Of a DNA stretch of 64,000 nucleotides, positions 8,088 through 17,334 are shown one piece after another. Every line of letters starts with the position of its first letter. Within the stretch, counting starts at the first letter, position 1. The notes under the pieces are model-generated. The model searched no databases, had not been told where the DNA came from, and saw nothing but the letters and a program-made list of their open reading frames with translations. The position numbers and the translations under genes were made by a program. Source of the stretch: an uncultured Thermoplasmata archaeon (lineage in GTDB: Archaea; Thermoplasmatota; Thermoplasmata; UBA10834); assembly GCA_963719945.1 (NCBI GenBank), contig CAVRDX010000001.1:704001-768000 (forward strand). Reading direction: 5' to 3'.

Positions 8088-8594
8088 TTGATGAAAGCAC
8101 TGGTTGCCTATTTATCCTCAACGGGGAACACGAAGAAGATAGCTGAGGCCATCTGCGACGAAATAAGATGCGAAAAGGACATCATGAAAATCGACGAGGT
8201 CGAGGACATCGGATCGTATGATATTTCATTCCTTGGCTTTCCCGTCCACGGGTATGGACCCGACAAGAAGACAAAGGAATTTCTGGAGAAGCATTGCACT
8301 GATGGACGCAAGATAGCACTCTTCATAACGCATGCTGCACCAGAGGAAGAACCGGAACTCCCGGAAACGCTCGCGAAGTTCAAGCAGGCGGCTGCCAGAG
8401 CGGATACCCAGGGCATTTTCAACTGCCAGGGAGAGCTTGCCAAAGGTGTGAAATTCATTATGAAGATAGCTCCAAGCAAGACGATGCGCTCACAAGCAAA
8501 GAAGGATAACAGCAAAGGGCAACCAGATTCGGCTCGAGTGGAGAAGGCCCGGGCCTTCGCTCGAGAGACTATGAGTCGATTGGAGATTCTTTGA
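8088..8594 (+). CDS. Flavodoxin family protein
   Basis: YLSSTGNTKKIAEAI FMN-binding loop, LGFPVHG, FNCQG. Confidence 0.88.
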   Translation: MMKALVAYLSSTGNTKKIAEAICDEIRCEKDIMKIDEVEDIGSYDISFLGFPVHGYGPDKKTKEFLEKHCTDGRKIALFITHAAPEEEPELPETLAKFKQAAARADTQGIFNCQGELAKGVKFIMKIAPSKTMRSQAKKDNSKGQPDSARVEKARAFARETMSRLEIL

Positions 8595-10614: not shown

Positions 10615-11019
10615 ATGGATATCAGAAACTCCGTCGCAACCTATTCGATAATAATCGGAATCATGATGGCAGCAATGTGGTCAGTGTTCGCCTTGACAGA
10701 CCAGATACCGGAATTCGAATCCAGCCCTCTTGAGATATCTTTCCATCTAGCAGCAGAACTGACGACCGCATTCGCATTGATACTTGGAGGAGTGACCATT
10801 GCGACAAGGAAGCATTGGGGATATTCAGTCAACATGATCGGATTAGGCATGCTGGCTTATACCGTGATAGTCAGCCCGGGCTACTATGCTGAATCAGGAG
10901 AGTTCGCATTCGTGGCCATGTTCGTGGTCTTGATGATTCTGACCCTTCTGTTCATCGTGATCTCCATCGTGAGGAAGGAGGATTTCCGTACAGAGAAGCT
11001 CGGTAGCGCAAATACGTGA
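10615..11019 (+). CDS. Four-TM hypothetical membrane protein
   Basis: Four hydrophobic helices; FHLAAE and VSPGYY motifs. Confidence 0.8.
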   Translation: MDIRNSVATYSIIIGIMMAAMWSVFALTDQIPEFESSPLEISFHLAAELTTAFALILGGVTIATRKHWGYSVNMIGLGMLAYTVIVSPGYYAESGEFAFVAMFVVLMILTLLFIVISIVRKEDFRTEKLGSANT

Positions 11020-11090
11020 ATACGCGGTGGATTGATCAGCTCTTATGCAAAATCGGCGAAAGGATATTCTCATCCCGAACCCCAATACGG

Positions 11091-11498
11091 ATGTTGATGA
11101 CAGAAGAGGTGGAAGTATCCGACGAGGAGTTGAGACGCAGACTGACTCCGAAGAGGTACAAGGTGCTCAGAGAAAAGGGAACTGAGGCACCATTTTCAGG
11201 TGAATTGCTTTACAATAAGAGGAATGGAAAGTACCTATGTGCCACTTGTGGGAACCAGCTTTTCGGATCTGAGACCAAGTACGATTCTGGATCAGGATGG
11301 CCCAGTTTCTGGGCACCTCTGTCAGAAGAGAGCATCGCAGAGACAGAAGATAATTCGATAGAACTGAGACGCACGGAACTTGTCTGCAGCAAATGCGGAA
11401 GCCATCTAGGTCATGTGTTCGATGATGGCCCTGCACCGACGGGAAGAAGGTACTGCATCAACTCGCTATCTCTCGACTTCGAAGAATCGAAGAAGTAA
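11091..11498 (+). CDS. msrB: Peptide methionine (R)-sulfoxide reductase
   Basis: GTEAPFSG, KYDSGSGWPSF, HLGHVFDDGP, RYCINS; two CxxC. Confidence 0.95.
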   Translation: MLMTEEVEVSDEELRRRLTPKRYKVLREKGTEAPFSGELLYNKRNGKYLCATCGNQLFGSETKYDSGSGWPSFWAPLSEESIAETEDNSIELRRTELVCSKCGSHLGHVFDDGPAPTGRRYCINSLSLDFEESKK

Positions 11499-11565
11499 AG
11501 ATCCTTTTAACAGAATTAATAGAGAACTAGGAAATGGTTTCTGTCGCACTGAACGGGTGAACAGA

Positions 11566-13056
11566 TCATCCGCCTGGTGACGAGGTACCGATCTTCAGGA
11601 ACTCCTCTTCTTCCTTCAAAGCCTGCTCGAATATCTCGAAGCCTTTCTCCAGTTGAGCTTTAGATATGCAGAGCGGTGGGGCAATCCTGAAGACATTGCC
11701 GTAAAAGCCAGAAGTGATCGTCATCAGACCGGACCTCCAGCACTTACCTTGGATATTGGTCGCCTCGTGTGGTTCCTTCGTGTACTGGTTCTTGACCAAT
11801 TCGACTCCGATCATGAGACCTCGGCCACGCACATCACCGATGATCTCGCGGCGCAGAGACATCTCTTTGAGCAACTTCGTCGCGTACTCGCCGAGCTTCG
11901 CAGCCCTGTCCACGAGGTTCTCCTCGATGATGGCCTGGACATGTGCGAGTCCTGCAGCCATCGTGATCGCATTGCCACCGAATGTCGATGAATGAGAGCC
12001 TGGTCTCCACTTCCTCATTATGTCGTGCTTGGCGATTATGGCACCAAGGGGCACGCCGCCTCCAAGGGCCTTTCCCATCACGAGGATGTCCGGGACCGTG
12101 TTGAAATGCTCGCACGCGAACATCTTGCCAGTCCGCGCGAAACCAGTCTGAACCTCGTCCATGACGAGAAGTGCATTCTGGGCTTCGCATATCTTTTTCA
12201 GTTGCGGGAGGAACTCTTTAGGCGGCACGACATAGCCACCCTCGCCTTGGATAGGTTCCACGAAGATCGATGCGATCTGGTTAGTTGTGCCACCAAGCTG
12301 CAGGACCTGGTTCTCGAGATAATCCATGCACCACATGCCGCATTCCGGGTATGTCTGCTTGAAAGCACACCTGTAGCAATAGGCATATGGCGAGAATATT
12401 ATTCCAGGAGACATCGGGCCGTAACTGTACCTGAGCTTCAACTTGCTCGTCAGAGCGAGACCCGCGCCGACACGGCCGTGATATGAACCGAAGAATGCGA
12501 CATGCTCGCTCCTCTTCGTATGATATCTGGACAACTTGAACGCGGCTTCCACGGCCTCTGCACCGCTGTTGCCGAAGAACGTGCCCTTGAGAGCCTTGTT
12601 TGGAGATATCTCGTGCAATAGCTTCGCGAAGTACGCCTCCTTGTCGAAGTACGCATCGTTGGCCATCGAGTGGATGAGTTTTGCCGCCTGATCCTGGATA
12701 GCCTTTGTGACCTTGTAATGGGTCCATCCTGCGTTCTGAACAGCAATTCCTGACGAGAAATCGAGCAGAACGTTCCCGTCGGCATCCATTACAGCTGCGC
12801 CGGATGCCCTGTCGATAGTGAACGTGAAACACCGGTCGTATGCATATGATACGTAGTCCCGGTCAATCTTGATGATCTCTTTGCTCTTTGGACCTGGAGC
12901 CCTGATTGATATCTTAGGTGCGTCCCTTGCCCAGGAGGCAACCCAACTCGGCAGAGGGAACTCCTCCGCTTGGGCTTTCGCCTGCTCCTCACTTTCAATG
13001 GATTTCGTCTGCTTGATCGGTTCTGCGACCGACTCATCCTCCACCATTTCACTCAT
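11566..13056 (-). CDS. Class III PLP aminotransferase (GABA/ornithine/putrescine transaminase-like)
   Basis: NSGAEAVEAA, EPIQGEGG, DEVQTGFARTG, GKALGGG, HSSTFGGN. Confidence 0.92.
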   Translation of the reverse strand: MSEMVEDESVAEPIKQTKSIESEEQAKAQAEEFPLPSWVASWARDAPKISIRAPGPKSKEIIKIDRDYVSYAYDRCFTFTIDRASGAAVMDADGNVLLDFSSGIAVQNAGWTHYKVTKAIQDQAAKLIHSMANDAYFDKEAYFAKLLHEISPNKALKGTFFGNSGAEAVEAAFKLSRYHTKRSEHVAFFGSYHGRVGAGLALTSKLKLRYSYGPMSPGIIFSPYAYCYRCAFKQTYPECGMWCMDYLENQVLQLGGTTNQIASIFVEPIQGEGGYVVPPKEFLPQLKKICEAQNALLVMDEVQTGFARTGKMFACEHFNTVPDILVMGKALGGGVPLGAIIAKHDIMRKWRPGSHSSTFGGNAITMAAGLAHVQAIIEENLVDRAAKLGEYATKLLKEMSLRREIIGDVRGRGLMIGVELVKNQYTKEPHEATNIQGKCWRSGLMTITSGFYGNVFRIAPPLCISKAQLEKGFEIFEQALKEEEEFLKIGTSSPGG

Positions 13057-13059
13057 CCC

Positions 13060-13494
13060 TTATTCCTCCCGAGACGGATCGAGAGTCAATGCACCTGTCT
13101 GGCACGCCTTGACGCATTTGGCTTCGCCCAGACACATATCACACATATATGCAGTTTCTATCCCGAACTCTCCCTCGAAGAAGCACGCATCGTATGGGCA
13201 CCTAGGTATGCAGGCCATGCAAGCGAAGCATCTGTGCTCGTCGAGGGTCCAATACTTCTTGTCGCCATGGAACTCAATGAGGGCTGAGGGACAGACCTCG
13301 CTGGGAGGACATTCCTCGCAATGCACGCATACGGTCGCTTTGTACTTGTCCTCCGCCTTGGATATCTTGATACGAGAGCGATCAATCGCTACGCTAGACT
13401 TGTGCATTTCCTTACAGATCTTTTCGCATTCCAGGCATCCGTTGCACTTGTCGGAGTGGAACACTACCCCAAATTTCTTTTTCGCAGAGCCCAT
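13060..13494 (-). CDS. 4x[4Fe-4S] electron-transfer protein (DmsB/AorA-like)
   Basis: CNGCLECEKIC, CVHCEECPPSEVCP, CFACMACIPRCP, CDMC...CVKAC; AGGAGG upstream. Confidence 0.9.
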   Translation of the reverse strand: MGSAKKKFGVVFHSDKCNGCLECEKICKEMHKSSVAIDRSRIKISKAEDKYKATVCVHCEECPPSEVCPSALIEFHGDKKYWTLDEHRCFACMACIPRCPYDACFFEGEFGIETAYMCDMCLGEAKCVKACQTGALTLDPSREE

Positions 13495-13654
13495 CTATGT
13501 ACCCTCCTGAGTTGCCACACCCGTTGAAATGTTGAGTGCGCCGAGTCAGGGAGACTTACTCCTGCAGCTCTCCAGTAAGCCTCTGATACCATATATATTC
13601 TTGGAATCGGGGGTATTTGTAGCTTCCCTTCTTACAATTACCAGTCAGACTTTA

Positions 13655-13697
13655 TGAATAATATTCAATCGGACACGGTTAAAGCTTGAATAATTCA
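13655..13697. promoter_or_regulatory. Two related palindromes, putative operator sites
   Basis: TGAATA-A-TATTCA (13655-13667) and TGAAT-A-ATTCA (13687-13697) in the AT-rich region upstream of the aminotransferase unit. Confidence 0.45.
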
Positions 13698-13851
13698 CAA
13701 TTCGCTCATTTGTATCGATTGCCTTTCGACTACGGCAATATTGGTGGTGAAAAATAGTTATCATCTGCATTGATATATATTGTTGTCTATATTTTTATAC
13801 TCACATAGAATTGAATCGAGGCATTCGGTCCAGACATCAAAATAGAGAGTG

Positions 13852-13878
13852 AAAAGGCATCTGCAAAAGAAAGATGCC
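13852..13878 (-). terminator. Hairpin plus T-run downstream of AOR
   Basis: Minus strand GGCATCT-9 nt-AGATGCC followed by TTTT. Confidence 0.6.
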
Positions 13879-13893
13879 GAGTTTAAGTATCTT

Positions 13894-15741
13894 TCAGCGC
13901 AAATAGCTCAGTTTCGGTACGATATCCCCGAGACCAGCCTTTTCGAGTGTCTCTCTTGTCGGCTTGCCATCGGAATCCCATCCCCAGAGAGAATAGTACT
14001 CGGACAACATCCTCTCGAATGATTCCTTCGATACTGCCTTGCCCTGAGTCTTGCCAGATGGAAGAGGAGACTTCGCCATCTTATCTGGAAGCGTGTCATC
14101 CTTCCTCGCGAATCCTTCCCTGACATTGAATGCACGAGTAAGGTTCCATATCCTGCGGCCGAGAGTGCGAAGGTGTTCCTCGCTGGATGGCACGCCAGTC
14201 ACCGCACTGTAGTATTTCGCCATATTGGGGAAGTTCACACCGTAGAAGTCACAGAATATGAAACTCCATTTGATGCTGGTCCTCGTCTGATCCTCCACGC
14301 ATGTCGCTGCCTTTCCCTCCGGGTCCCAAGGATTCGCGCTGCCATAGGCATCGCCTGCGACAGGCCATGCACGCAGATGACAAGCGCCCCTGTCGGATGT
14401 CGCGTATGCAAGGGCCATTCCTATGCTGCCCCTGGGATCATACGCGGGATATTCCATCCCCTTGACTGCGACCACCATCGCTTCAGCGCCTTTGCCGATC
14501 TTCTGAGCGGCACGTTTGGTACCGTCGGCGAGCAATGCCCCGATGTTCTGCCTTCTGGCGATCATCGCAGGCATCTTGACATATGCTTCGGCATTGCCGA
14601 ACCTCATGTCCAGTCCTCCGAAGTCGTCCTTGGACAGAACCCCTTTCTCATAGAGCTCCATCGCCATTGCGACAGCGTTGCCGGTCGATATCGAATCCAG
14701 ACCCTCCCTGTCGCACTCCTCAACGAACTTGATCACTGCCTCTACATCCTTTATACCACAGTTGGACCCACACAGTCCCAGGGTCTCATACTCAGGGCCC
14801 TCGGAAGCGGAATCCTTGAAGATGCCGCTCCTCACCTTGGCCCATGTTCCGCATGCTAGTGCGCAATCGAAGCATGCCCTCTTACGAACGAAGACCCTTG
14901 ATTTGATCGCCTCGGAGTTGATGCCATCGTGTCCGTCGAAGGTACCATCGTTCCAGTTCCTCGTCGGAAGTATTCCAGCGTCATTACTCATCTCCACAAG
15001 GATCGGCGTGCCATCGGTGATCATCCCTGCGTGATCTGGATTATCCACGACATCAGTACGTATCATCTCTTTGGCCATCTTCAACAGGCCATCCATGTCC
15101 GGAACCTCGACGCCGAGGGAACCCTTTGCCGCGATGGCCTTTAGGTTCTTGGAACCGAAGACCGCACCTGTGCCACCCCGGCCAGCGTTCCTAGTGAGAT
15201 CGCTCGTGACGCTCGATATGAGGCCGACATGCTCGCCGGCCGGTCCGATGCTCGCGACCCTTGCCATCTTCTGCCCGGTCTCCTTCCGGACGATTTCCTC
15301 AGTCGCGTAAGTATCCTTACCCCAGAGGTTCTTGGCATCGCGTATCTCCACTCTGCCATCGTTGAGCCAGAGATAGACCGGTTTGGACGCCTTGCCCGTT
15401 ATGATCATACCGTCGAATCCAGAATACTTGATCTCCGGTCCGAAGAAACCTCCGGCATAGCTGTCCAGGAAAGTCCCGGTCAAAGGAGATTTGGTTACTA
15501 TGACATACCTGCTGGTCAGAGGGACCAGCGTGCCCACGAGTGGGCCTGTCCACACCGAGAGTATGTTCTCTGGTGAGAGTGGGTCTGTGCCAGGCTTGAG
15601 CTCCTCGAACAGATACTTGGCGCCGAGACCTTTCCCTCCAATATACTGCTTCGCCCACTCCTTGTTGAGTGGCTCGGTGGATATCTTCTCATTCGTCAGA
15701 TCGACTCTCAGAACCTTGCCAGTATATCCGTCAGCAGTCAT
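13894..15741 (-). CDS. aor: Tungsten-type aldehyde:ferredoxin oxidoreductase
   Basis: GKVLRVDLT, KSPLTG, SIGPAGE, AGRGGTGAVFGSKNLKAI, CFDCALAC, EYET, DRGACH. Confidence 0.93.
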   Translation of the reverse strand: MTADGYTGKVLRVDLTNEKISTEPLNKEWAKQYIGGKGLGAKYLFEELKPGTDPLSPENILSVWTGPLVGTLVPLTSRYVIVTKSPLTGTFLDSYAGGFFGPEIKYSGFDGMIITGKASKPVYLWLNDGRVEIRDAKNLWGKDTYATEEIVRKETGQKMARVASIGPAGEHVGLISSVTSDLTRNAGRGGTGAVFGSKNLKAIAAKGSLGVEVPDMDGLLKMAKEMIRTDVVDNPDHAGMITDGTPILVEMSNDAGILPTRNWNDGTFDGHDGINSEAIKSRVFVRKRACFDCALACGTWAKVRSGIFKDSASEGPEYETLGLCGSNCGIKDVEAVIKFVEECDREGLDSISTGNAVAMAMELYEKGVLSKDDFGGLDMRFGNAEAYVKMPAMIARRQNIGALLADGTKRAAQKIGKGAEAMVVAVKGMEYPAYDPRGSIGMALAYATSDRGACHLRAWPVAGDAYGSANPWDPEGKAATCVEDQTRTSIKWSFIFCDFYGVNFPNMAKYYSAVTGVPSSEEHLRTLGRRIWNLTRAFNVREGFARKDDTLPDKMAKSPLPSGKTQGKAVSKESFERMLSEYYSLWGWDSDGKPTRETLEKAGLGDIVPKLSYLR

Positions 15742-15746
15742 CAGGA

Positions 15747-16151
15747 TCACCTACTCAGGACGCCCTTGGGACATACCTCGACGCATTGAGGATTGCCATT
15801 ACACAGGTCACACTTGATCGAATAAGAGCCGGATGGGTCCAGCCAGCAACCATTGTACGGGCACACATCCACGCAGGCCCCACACGCAGTGCACTCATCC
15901 TTGTCGACATAGTAGATGCCGAGCGACTCGTTCAACTTTATCGCTTCGACAGGGCACGCCTCGACGCAGGGGTGCTCGTCACAGTGTGTGCAGTGATTCA
16001 TCCTGAACTCGCCTGGTTCTGGGAACACATCCTCAACATTGATCCGCGACTCACTCGGGTTGAACTTCCCCGTGTGGGATGCAGAGCATATGAGGGCACA
16101 CATCTGGCAACCAGTGCACTTATCGAGATCGGCTTTCAGGCCCTTACTCAT
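15747..16151 (-). CDS. 4x[4Fe-4S] protein, probable AOR small subunit
   Basis: Four Cys motifs; stop codon overlaps the AOR ribosome-binding site. Confidence 0.9.
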   Translation of the reverse strand: MSKGLKADLDKCTGCQMCALICSASHTGKFNPSESRINVEDVFPEPGEFRMNHCTHCDEHPCVEACPVEAIKLNESLGIYYVDKDECTACGACVDVCPYNGCWLDPSGSYSIKCDLCNGNPQCVEVCPKGVLSR

Positions 16152-16190
16152 TGGTTTCGTCCTCCTAACGTCAATTTCTCACCATTTACA

Positions 16191-16266
16191 GGATGATACC
16201 GGGGGCTCCGCTGATTCATGTTCGTTGTGTTCCGAAATCTGAACGCAACTCCCCAGGCACCAATCC
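16191..16266 (-). promoter_or_regulatory. Structured 5' leader of the ferredoxin-AOR unit (candidate cis-regulatory RNA)
   Basis: GGAU(U)GGUGCC-U-GGGG pairs with CCCC-C-GGUAUCAUCC and encloses hairpin GUUG-C-GUUC/GAAC-A-CAAC. Confidence 0.45.
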
Positions 16267-16560
16267 CCTAGTCTAATCGCGTCTTGAGAATGCAGGTCCG
16301 GCATTTAGTACTTGTCGGTTTTATTCACCAGCCAGCCTGAACAATTTCTAATAGTCACGATGAGCCAGACGCCCGGATGGATATGCTAGATAGAGCGTAT
16401 CGATGCACTGAGTCCTCAATCAAGTGATATAAATATTAATCAACGGATATTCAATGCGACCTTGATTCTATATCAATCAAGGACTTCCTGCAGAAATGAG
16501 GATTGCGCGTCCCTTGACGCTCAAAAAATAGTTATACGAATCAGTCCTAATGCGCAGAAC

Positions 16561-17334
16561 ATGATTGCCGAGGGCACCAAGGTCCTTCTGATAGACTCAC
16601 AGGAGAAGAGAGTCATCGTGACTGCATCGAGAAAGATCCTCGAGGTCGGTGCGCTCGGCGTGATCGATGGCAGCAAGGTCTGCGATTCCTCATTCGGAGA
16701 GAAGCTCAGCATAGGTGGACGCGATTTCCTTCTTGTTCGACCGAGTGTCAGGGATATCCTCCGCATTATCGAGAGGAGAGCACAGATAATGGTCCCGAAG
16801 GACAGCTTCCTGATACCGATGTATCTTGACCTGGGAGCCGGGAGCAAGGTCCTCGAAGCGGGCGTCGGCTCGGGTGCCCTGACTATCGTCTTGCTGAAAG
16901 CAGTCGCCCCCAGCGGAAAGGTCGTGTCATACGATTTGCGAGAGGACCACGCGGTGATAGCCAAGAAGAATGTCATGCTCACCGATAACGGTCCGATCTG
17001 GAATCTGAGGATAGGCGATATCTGCACCACGGAGCTGGAAAATGATTTCGACGCGGTCGTGCTGGACATGCCTAACCCATGGGACGCTCTGGAGAACGTG
17101 ACGGGAGCACTGACGATCGGCGGTCAGATATGCTGTTACGTCCCCAACACGAACCAGTTGCATAAGGCCGTCGCTAAGATGGAGGACTTGCGACTATCAG
17201 ACATCCATGCATTCGAGACATTGCAGAGGGAGATGATAGTCCACGAAGGGGGCGTACGACCAAGCTTCGATATGCTCGGCCATACGGGCTACATGGTGTT
17301 CTCAAGGAAGGTCAGAGCGGTCAGACCAGAATGA
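16561..17334 (+). CDS. trmI: tRNA (adenine-N1)-methyltransferase
   Basis: RRAQIMVPKD, LEAGVGSGALT, LDMPNPW, RPSFDMLGHTGY. Confidence 0.92.
   Translation: MIAEGTKVLLIDSQEKRVIVTASRKILEVGALGVIDGSKVCDSSFGEKLSIGGRDFLLVRPSVRDILRIIERRAQIMVPKDSFLIPMYLDLGAGSKVLEAGVGSGALTIVLLKAVAPSGKVVSYDLREDHAVIAKKNVMLTDNGPIWNLRIGDICTTELENDFDAVVLDMPNPWDALENVTGALTIGGQICCYVPNTNQLHKAVAKMEDLRLSDIHAFETLQREMIVHEGGVRPSFDMLGHTGYMVFSRKVRAVRPE

Follow-up and report, generated by a model that had tools for sequence, protein, structure and literature searches.

A conserved pairing of a polyferredoxin gene with a class III PLP enzyme gene in uncultured Thermoplasmata

A 64-kb stretch of DNA from an uncultured Thermoplasmata archaeon (GenBank GCA_963719945.1, contig CAVRDX010000001.1; hereafter the window, in whose positions all coordinates are given) carries four minus-strand genes that form two transcription units, FeS1-AOR and then FeS2-AT. 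FeS1 (15747..16151) encodes a 134-residue 4x[4Fe-4S] polyferredoxin with Fer4 family matches, of the kind that serves as the small subunit in AorA/WOR5-S-type aldehyde:ferredoxin oxidoreductases (AORs), and AOR (13894..15741) encodes a tungsten-type enzyme of that family. FeS2 (13060..13494) encodes a second 4x[4Fe-4S] polyferredoxin, 144 residues long, from a narrow, lineage-restricted family. AT (11566..13056) encodes a 496-residue class III (fold type I) enzyme dependent on pyridoxal phosphate (PLP), which is similar to omega-aminotransferases. The AOR half of this arrangement is known. The FeS2-AT half is a strongly conserved, undescribed association; our literature searches found no description of a pairing between a ferredoxin and a class III aminotransferase.

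Both polyferredoxin genes have an AGGAGG sequence 8 nt ahead of the ATG. Their products are 32% identical (E = 3e-23), each with 16 cysteines in four cluster motifs. The FeS2 stop codon, TAA, is followed by GGG and then by the ATG of AT, leaving a gap of 3 nt. The stop codon of FeS1 overlaps an in-frame GTG at 15750 and lies 3 nt before an ATG at 15741; this ATG is the likelier start of AOR because genes of the resulting length, 615 residues, are called in relatives. The two units are separated by 399 bp (13495-13893) with a GC content of 37–39%, compared with 52–59% in the genes, and a hairpin followed by UUUU lies just past the AOR stop codon. An earlier note on the window had described this layout, with its two co-oriented units headed by iron-sulfur genes behind AGGAGG, the hairpin and T-run, the AT-rich gap of about 400 bp and the 3-nt spacing, and we confirm all of it.

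Conservation of the FeS2-AT pair with and without AOR

Using one genome per species and a tblastn survey of neighbours, we located 48 loci of the FeS2 family, one of which ends at a contig edge. In the 47 evaluable loci (47/47), AT lies directly downstream of FeS2, adjacent or overlapping, with no gene between. The pairing is thus conserved and is not the remnant of a deletion, a possibility that the earlier note had raised. The loci fall into two groups. Type A, the window's own clade, comprises 41 loci, of which 33 reach far enough upstream to show what precedes the pair; all 33 have FeS1-AOR about 400 bp ahead of it. FeS1 is 74–97% identical across the type-A loci that reach it and is directly upstream of AOR there. 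Type B comprises seven loci of a deeply diverged second clade, in which FeS2 is 44–50% identical; their records are labelled Ca. Sysuiplasma or Sysuiplasmataceae, Methanomassiliicoccales, or simply as metagenome-assembled genomes (MAGs) of Thermoplasmata. The two genes mostly overlap by 4 nt (ATGA, TTGA or GTGA) in both clades; the window instead has its 3-nt spacer. As judged from this spacing, FeS2 and AT are translationally coupled in types A and B alike.

No AOR gene was found within 5 kb of the pair in any of the seven type-B loci. In five type-B genomes (1.6–2.1 Mb, one about 95% complete), no gene of the AOR family (PF01314) was found anywhere, and the same search was positive in 5 of 14 control genomes. 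Because genomes without AOR retain FeS2-AT, FeS2 in general is not an AOR subunit. The neighbours of the type-B pair are of a different kind: a convergent HemL-like class III PLP gene is present in 7/7 loci and an upstream Lrp/AsnC regulator in 5/7; the window's genome encodes a homologue of this regulator with 50% identity at C4:374717-375163. Two of the type-B pairs are accompanied by a saccharopine-dehydrogenase-like gene and a further omega-transaminase; at one of the two there is also a methylmalonate-semialdehyde dehydrogenase of the NAD-type, CoA-acylating kind. Since these genes lie near type-B pairs, polyamine- or beta-alanine-type substrates are possible for AT.

The same pattern emerges from a co-occurrence search in 41 related genomes. 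Every genome of the window's family has AT with its N-terminal tail (at least 81% identity), together with a tail-less paralogue of about 458 residues (60–65% identity). FeS2 is present in 23 of the 24 genomes of this family, and in the exception (G002) AT starts at a contig edge. FeS2 and AT are both present in G033, a genome of another family. Three genomes of the same order have the tail-less paralogue type only and no FeS2 orthologue, and eleven other genomes of the class have neither a close AT nor an FeS2 orthologue. Thus, among the related genomes, FeS2 is found only where this AT lineage is present. At the one locus of the tail-less paralogue that we examined, no iron-sulfur gene lies upstream. 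Gene order and co-occurrence indicate that the conserved, co-inherited unit is the polyferredoxin plus the PLP enzyme, and that AOR is a family-specific neighbour.

A quick tree of the aminotransferases has the type-B clade as its first branch and joins the group without an FeS gene to the window's clade as sisters, with a support of 85, which is weak. Two outgroup loci have neighbours of their own. At L068 (4001-7859), from an Asgard-labelled MAG, IorA/IorB-like 2-oxoacid:ferredoxin oxidoreductase genes stand immediately downstream of an aminotransferase 46% identical to AT, and glycine-cleavage and serine hydroxymethyltransferase genes lie upstream of it. At L069, the outgroup aminotransferase adjoins succinyl-CoA-synthetase-like genes. 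At two further loci (L018:5457-6928 and L035:5439-6889), the match to the aminotransferase is broken into two or three pieces that overlap and lie in different frames, owing to frameshifts or assembly errors.

The proteins of the two units

All 16 cysteines of FeS2 are invariant among 29 family members. The nearest solved chains are MvhB, AorA (8C0Z_C) and WOR5-S. Orthologues are numerous in Thermoplasmata MAGs (63–92% identity), and several records of FeS2-family loci derive from mud or sediment samples. A search of 1.84 billion representative proteins shows the family as two clusters at 50% identity (255 and 210 bits); below these, single-stretch scores drop from 210 to about 100 bits and the matches are generic polyferredoxins. 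No fusion of FeS2 with AT was found in the best 150 of these 1.84 billion representatives or in the top 120 aminotransferase relatives. Adjacency to and co-occurrence with AOR, which together mark subunits of the AorA/WOR5-S type, hold for FeS1 and do not hold for FeS2. FeS2 diverges about twice as fast as AT, with mean Kimura distances of 0.34 and 0.15 in 27 genomes.

AT matches Aminotran_3 (PF00202; 370.7 bits, 1e-110) over profile positions 9–403 of 403. It retains the Schiff-base lysine (K329), the PLP-binding D300 and Q303, which align with those of 7VNO, and both carboxylate-binding arginines; K329, D300, Q303, E267, R195, R457 and T358 are invariant in 28 relatives, as is the glutamate E272 of the EPIQGEGG motif. 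The nearest solved relative is 7VNO, the ornithine/lysine omega-aminotransferase PH1423 of P. horikoshii (9e-95, residues 52–483). The substrates of PH1423, an ornithine delta-aminotransferase, are L/D-Orn and L/D-Lys; its activity on 5-aminovalerate, 6-aminohexanoate and 4-aminobutyrate (GABA) is weak (PMC9986279, table 3).

Several more specific assignments were tried. The Pyrococcus racemases 9WQZ (Ala/Ser, 2e-92) and 9WRF (broad-specificity, 3e-89) have the fold and subfamily of AT, but the motif in 9WQZ reads EPIQGDAG, and 7VNO has the same EPIQGEGG as AT. This agrees with the view of the earlier note that the motif favours a transaminase. With glutamate rather than aspartate at this position, and scores of 332 against a cut-off of 639 (NF004171) and 329 against 800 (NF045634), a GABA-AT-fold racemase was rejected. 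The biosynthetic enzyme ArgD/LysJ (TIGR00707), which the note had named as an identity that would undo its proposal, was rejected as well: AT scores 329.8 bits against a cut-off of 410, no arg or lys genes are adjacent, and the same genome holds a better candidate at C4:203877-205025 (391 bits). AT is related to 4-aminobutyrate aminotransferase (TIGR00700; 345.7 against 506.65) and to NF004426 (PRK05769; 490.9 against 552) and is assignable to neither.

The N-terminal extension of AT, which the earlier note suggested could be an acidic docking arm, is real, as family profiles first align at residues 45–78. The tail is about 33 residues long and variable, and residues 1–29 are predicted to be disordered from an AlphaFold2 (AF2) model, with a predicted local distance difference test score (pLDDT) below 50. 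The segment LPxWVxxWAR (residues 35–44) is common to the tail-less paralogues, so that only the first 11–37 residues are specific to the FeS-linked copies. The acidic character did not hold up as a general property: the tail is acidic in type A (net charge –5 to –7), shorter and near neutral in type B, and poorly conserved. It may be a tether, or it may be a mere by-product of a start codon placed on the upstream stop codon. When both FeS-linked clades were compared with the FeS-less paralogues, 11 scattered positions distinguished them, several of which carry the outgroup state, and no docking signature was found.

AT also contains four cysteines, C227-x2-C230-x8-C239-x3-C243 (12328-12378; PYAYCYRCAFKQTYPECGMWC), which are invariant in all 121 relatives retrieved (121/121). 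Neither 7VNO nor any solved chain found has the motif. The tail-less, FeS-less paralogues do have it, as do outgroup enzymes of 46–49% identity, Asgard-labelled ones included. The four cysteines may form an uncharacterized metal site, Zn or Fe-S, in a subfamily of class III aminotransferases; as the motif is not specific to the pairing with FeS2, it is by itself no argument for a redox wire. The AF2 model of AT, built from 28 sequences with a mean pLDDT of 62, falls below 50 in the cysteine region (223–236) and is unreliable there.

The AOR protein spans both family profiles end to end: AFOR_N (PF02730, 268 bits) and AFOR_C (PF01314, 439 bits), with E-values of 2e-131/6e-80 for the pair. The nearest solved structures are 9MQX_D (1e-145), 1AOR and 8C0Z_A, which is AorB (2e-130). 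These matches place the protein as a member of the tungsten aldehyde:ferredoxin oxidoreductase family (AOR/FOR/WOR). By sequence, FeS1-AOR is an ordinary AorAB/WOR5-type pair, a kind that is already known, with a predicted tungsten cofactor and predicted aldehyde oxidation.

The source genome (G000, 1.78 Mb) encodes eight class III PLP paralogues and three AORs. The second AOR (40% identical), in the region C2:98985-109150 outside the window, has no FeS gene seen adjoining and lies within 10 kb of two tandem class III aminotransferase paralogues and an aldehyde-dehydrogenase-like gene. The third (C3:80587-82841; L007:4573-6854) has its own 149-residue four-cluster FeS subunit, 43% identical to FeS1, and adjoins a gene for an ArsA-type ATPase.

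Control regions and surroundings

The hairpin past AOR (13852..13878, minus strand) starts 16 nt after the stop codon and is a likely transcript end. It has a 7-bp stem, GGCAUCU/AGAUGCC, a 9-nt loop and a predicted energy of –9.5 kcal/mol (z = –2.76). A bacterial terminator consensus scan did not report it; this stricter consensus is a bacterial one. The gap was aligned between the window and three relatives (L001, L003 and L004), whose FeS2 proteins are only 68–71% identical and whose gaps measure 404–411 bp. A TATA-box-like block, CCAAGAATATATATG (13590..13604, minus strand), is invariant across the four loci. It lies about 100 nt ahead of the FeS2 start codon and implies a leader of about 75 nt. 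Further upstream are two perfect palindromes, TGAAT-N3-ATTCA (13655-13667) and TGAAT-N1-ATTCA (13687-13697), assigned to neither strand, which are candidate operators. They are the sole matches to TGAAT-N1/3-ATTCA in the 64-kb window, where 0.37 would be expected by chance, and their TGAA...TTCA cores are partly conserved in the three relatives. The conserved TATA-like block and the TGAA...TTCA elements give FeS2-AT a promoter of its own, one that is probably regulated. The proposal in the earlier note that the second iron-sulfur gene is co-induced with AOR is not supported, since the two units have separate promoters.

A different element is seen in the FeS2 leaders of type B. L012 (4445-4550), L006, L010 and L011 share a conserved hairpin, UGCCG...CGGCA around an inner GUUUGU/GCAAAC stem, whose end directly abuts the GGAGG ribosome-binding site; the L012 fold has a z-score of –4.1. 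In L011 the inner stem is deleted and the outer stem is retained. This hairpin may be a translational control element.

The leader of FeS1-AOR is about 150 nt long and non-coding (16152-16310), and the upper limit of the region noted earlier, 16310, falls in this leader and not in coding sequence. An Rfam scan of 11000-17000 at E ≤ 1, which included the leader, gave no matches. The plus-strand flanks of the cluster hold a flavodoxin-like gene and a gene for the methionine-sulfoxide reductase MsrB (SelR) (8088-8594 and 11016-11498). Genes for a GCD14 tRNA methyltransferase and for PurS/PurL lie upstream, with the same synteny in relatives.

Role of FeS2 and comparison with known systems

PLP transaminases are redox-neutral enzymes. 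A four-cluster polyferredoxin that, across orders and whether or not AOR is present, occurs solely as the translationally coupled partner of a single aminotransferase lineage is therefore not explained by any known biochemistry. We favour a reading in which FeS2 is the dedicated electron carrier for the step that oxidizes the product of the transaminase, and tentatively give it a probability of about 0.45. AT would move the omega-amino group of a diamino or omega-amino acid, probably of the ornithine, lysine or GABA type, to a 2-oxo acid and so produce a semialdehyde. FeS2, dedicated to this step of the pathway, would take up the electrons released when that product is oxidized. In the window's family the neighbouring AOR would oxidize the semialdehyde, completing a route from amine to aldehyde to acid; in the AOR-less relatives some other, hypothetical oxidoreductase would do so. 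The analysis shows the anatomy of the genes, their strict pairing and co-occurrence, their independence from AOR and the retention of all cluster ligands and catalytic PLP residues; the substrate class of AT, the direction of its reaction and any contact between FeS2 and AT are inferred. The outgroup relatives that sit beside ferredoxin-linked enzymes (IOR-like, L068) or acid-activating enzymes (succinyl-CoA-synthetase-like, L069) are consistent with such a pathway. The amine-to-acid module proposed in the earlier note is plausible within its own clade, because FeS1-AOR precedes the pair in every type-A locus that reaches far enough; it is not the conserved core, since type B does without AOR.

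Several observations weigh against this reading. The AOR-less genomes encode no ferredoxin-dependent enzyme near FeS2-AT, which is why the other oxidoreductase is hypothetical. The link of FeS2 to any reaction is drawn from gene context, and PLP transamination requires no redox partner. AT does not reach the curated cut-off of any NCBIfam model. A neighbour resembling pyrroline-5-carboxylate dehydrogenase would indicate ornithine, but just 2 of the 54 loci scanned have one, both in the window's own clade, and for that reason we dropped it as a general clue to the substrate. Two computational tests left the balance unchanged. Complex prediction for AT and FeS2, run with alignments, four 4Fe-4S clusters and AT as a monomer, gave 0.01 and 0.08, both short of the 0.32 mark, and counts neither for nor against binding. 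Mirror-tree partial correlations in 27 genomes gave 0.30 and 0.47 for FeS2, which are uninformative because the positive control failed (FeS1~AOR given AT, 0.09; FeS1~AT given AOR, 0.47).

AT could itself be a redox-coupled B6 enzyme, with a docked FeS2 passing electrons to or from the PLP or pyridoxamine phosphate (PMP) intermediate, perhaps via a metal or Fe-S site at the four cysteines. The pair would then be a two-subunit amine:ferredoxin oxidoreductase that needs no keto acid or, running the other way, a reductive aminase driven by ferredoxin. The PLP enzyme is the only conserved genomic partner of FeS2, coupled to it in two deeply diverged clades and kept in genomes that lack AOR, and FeS2 retains all of its cluster ligands. 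The four cysteines, invariant in the enzyme clade and missing from 7VNO and the solved chains found, offer a candidate site, and the PMP/[2Fe-2S] dehydrase E1, with its reductase E3, sets a precedent. However, the same cysteines occur in the FeS-less paralogues and the outgroup and are not specific to the pairing, and AT keeps all residues of a normal two-substrate transaminase, including both carboxylate-binding arginines. No residue sets the FeS-linked clades apart; where they depart from the FeS-less group, they mostly carry the outgroup state. Oxidative deamination, judged by established redox potentials, is also thermodynamically poor at reducing a low-potential ferredoxin. We consider such coupling unlikely. 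A role without catalytic electron transfer, with FeS2 as a redox- or oxygen-sensing or stabilizing partner that controls whether the PLP enzyme is active or assembled, or the mere co-expression of a ferredoxin used elsewhere, is a little harder still to credit. It would agree with the faster divergence of FeS2, with the lack of an oxidoreductase conserved beside the pair in both clades, and with a disordered, poorly conserved tail that may be a by-product of the start/stop overlap. But a strictly conserved wire of four clusters and 16 cysteines is typical of electron conduits and not of sensors, and a general-purpose ferredoxin would neither be limited to genomes with one aminotransferase lineage nor stay translationally coupled to it across orders.

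The earlier note suggested that the neighbouring AOR could take FeS2 as a swappable small subunit, which would reroute electrons or recruit the transaminase; such recruitment would serve aldehyde channelling. The idea draws on the paralogy of FeS2 with FeS1, on AorA and WOR5-S being among its nearest solved relatives, and on the constant presence of FeS1-AOR beside type-A pairs (33/33). As a general explanation it does not survive the second clade, in which the pair is kept by seven species although AOR is missing from the surrounding 5 kb, and in which a search that worked in its controls found no PF01314 gene in five genomes. FeS2 is also more distant from FeS1 (32% identity) than is the FeS protein linked to the third AOR of the genome (43%), and it shares its promoter with AT and not with AOR. 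We regard this role as very improbable.

If FeS2 serves the next step of the pathway, as in the dedicated-carrier reading that we favour, the locus would encode a ferredoxin-linked catabolic route for omega-amines or diamino acids, and such a route would bear on carbon and nitrogen turnover by abundant uncultured Thermoplasmata. If FeS2 instead acts on the PLP enzyme, the pair would represent a new enzyme class in anaerobic archaea, and a ferredoxin-driven amination or deamination catalyst would be of interest for biocatalysis. The pair is small (144 + 496 residues).

Iron-sulfur centres have precedents among B6 enzymes. In 3,6-dideoxyhexose biosynthesis, the PMP/[2Fe-2S] dehydrase E1 works with the reductase E3, coupling a B6 enzyme to Fe-S electron transfer, and mammalian GABA-AT has a [2Fe-2S] cluster. 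To our knowledge these are the only B6 enzymes of the aminotransferase fold with Fe-S centres. Both differ from the pair described here. E1, a DegT/DnrJ/EryC1-family protein, has a cluster of its own and relies on a flavin/[2Fe-2S] reductase; in mammalian GABA-AT the CxxC lies at another position, aligning with GNSGAEA of AT; and neither has a separate 4x[4Fe-4S] protein.

Closer to AT are the Thermococcales ornithine/lysine omega-aminotransferases (PH1423, which is 7VNO, and TK2101), which have the EPIQGEGG motif, the Schiff-base lysine region and both substrate arginines in common with it. Unlike AT, 7VNO has no N-terminal tail and no four-cysteine motif, the sequence there reading PYPNPYRNPW...DELINRV, and we know of no ferredoxin gene partner for it. 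The FeS1-AOR unit has direct counterparts in AorAB(C) of Aromatoleum aromaticum (8C0Z), WOR5 of Pyrococcus furiosus (6X6U/6X1O) and 9MQX, in which a gene for a 4x[4Fe-4S] subunit likewise lies directly 5' of the tungsten AOR gene; unlike AorABC of A. aromaticum, the locus has no gene for the FAD subunit AorC. Both FeS1 and FeS2 match the Fe-S chains of these complexes (8C0Z_C, 6X6U_B and 9MQX_E). FeS2 thus belongs to the same fold family as AorA and WOR5-S, but its partner is a PLP enzyme, and it is kept in genomes that lack AOR.

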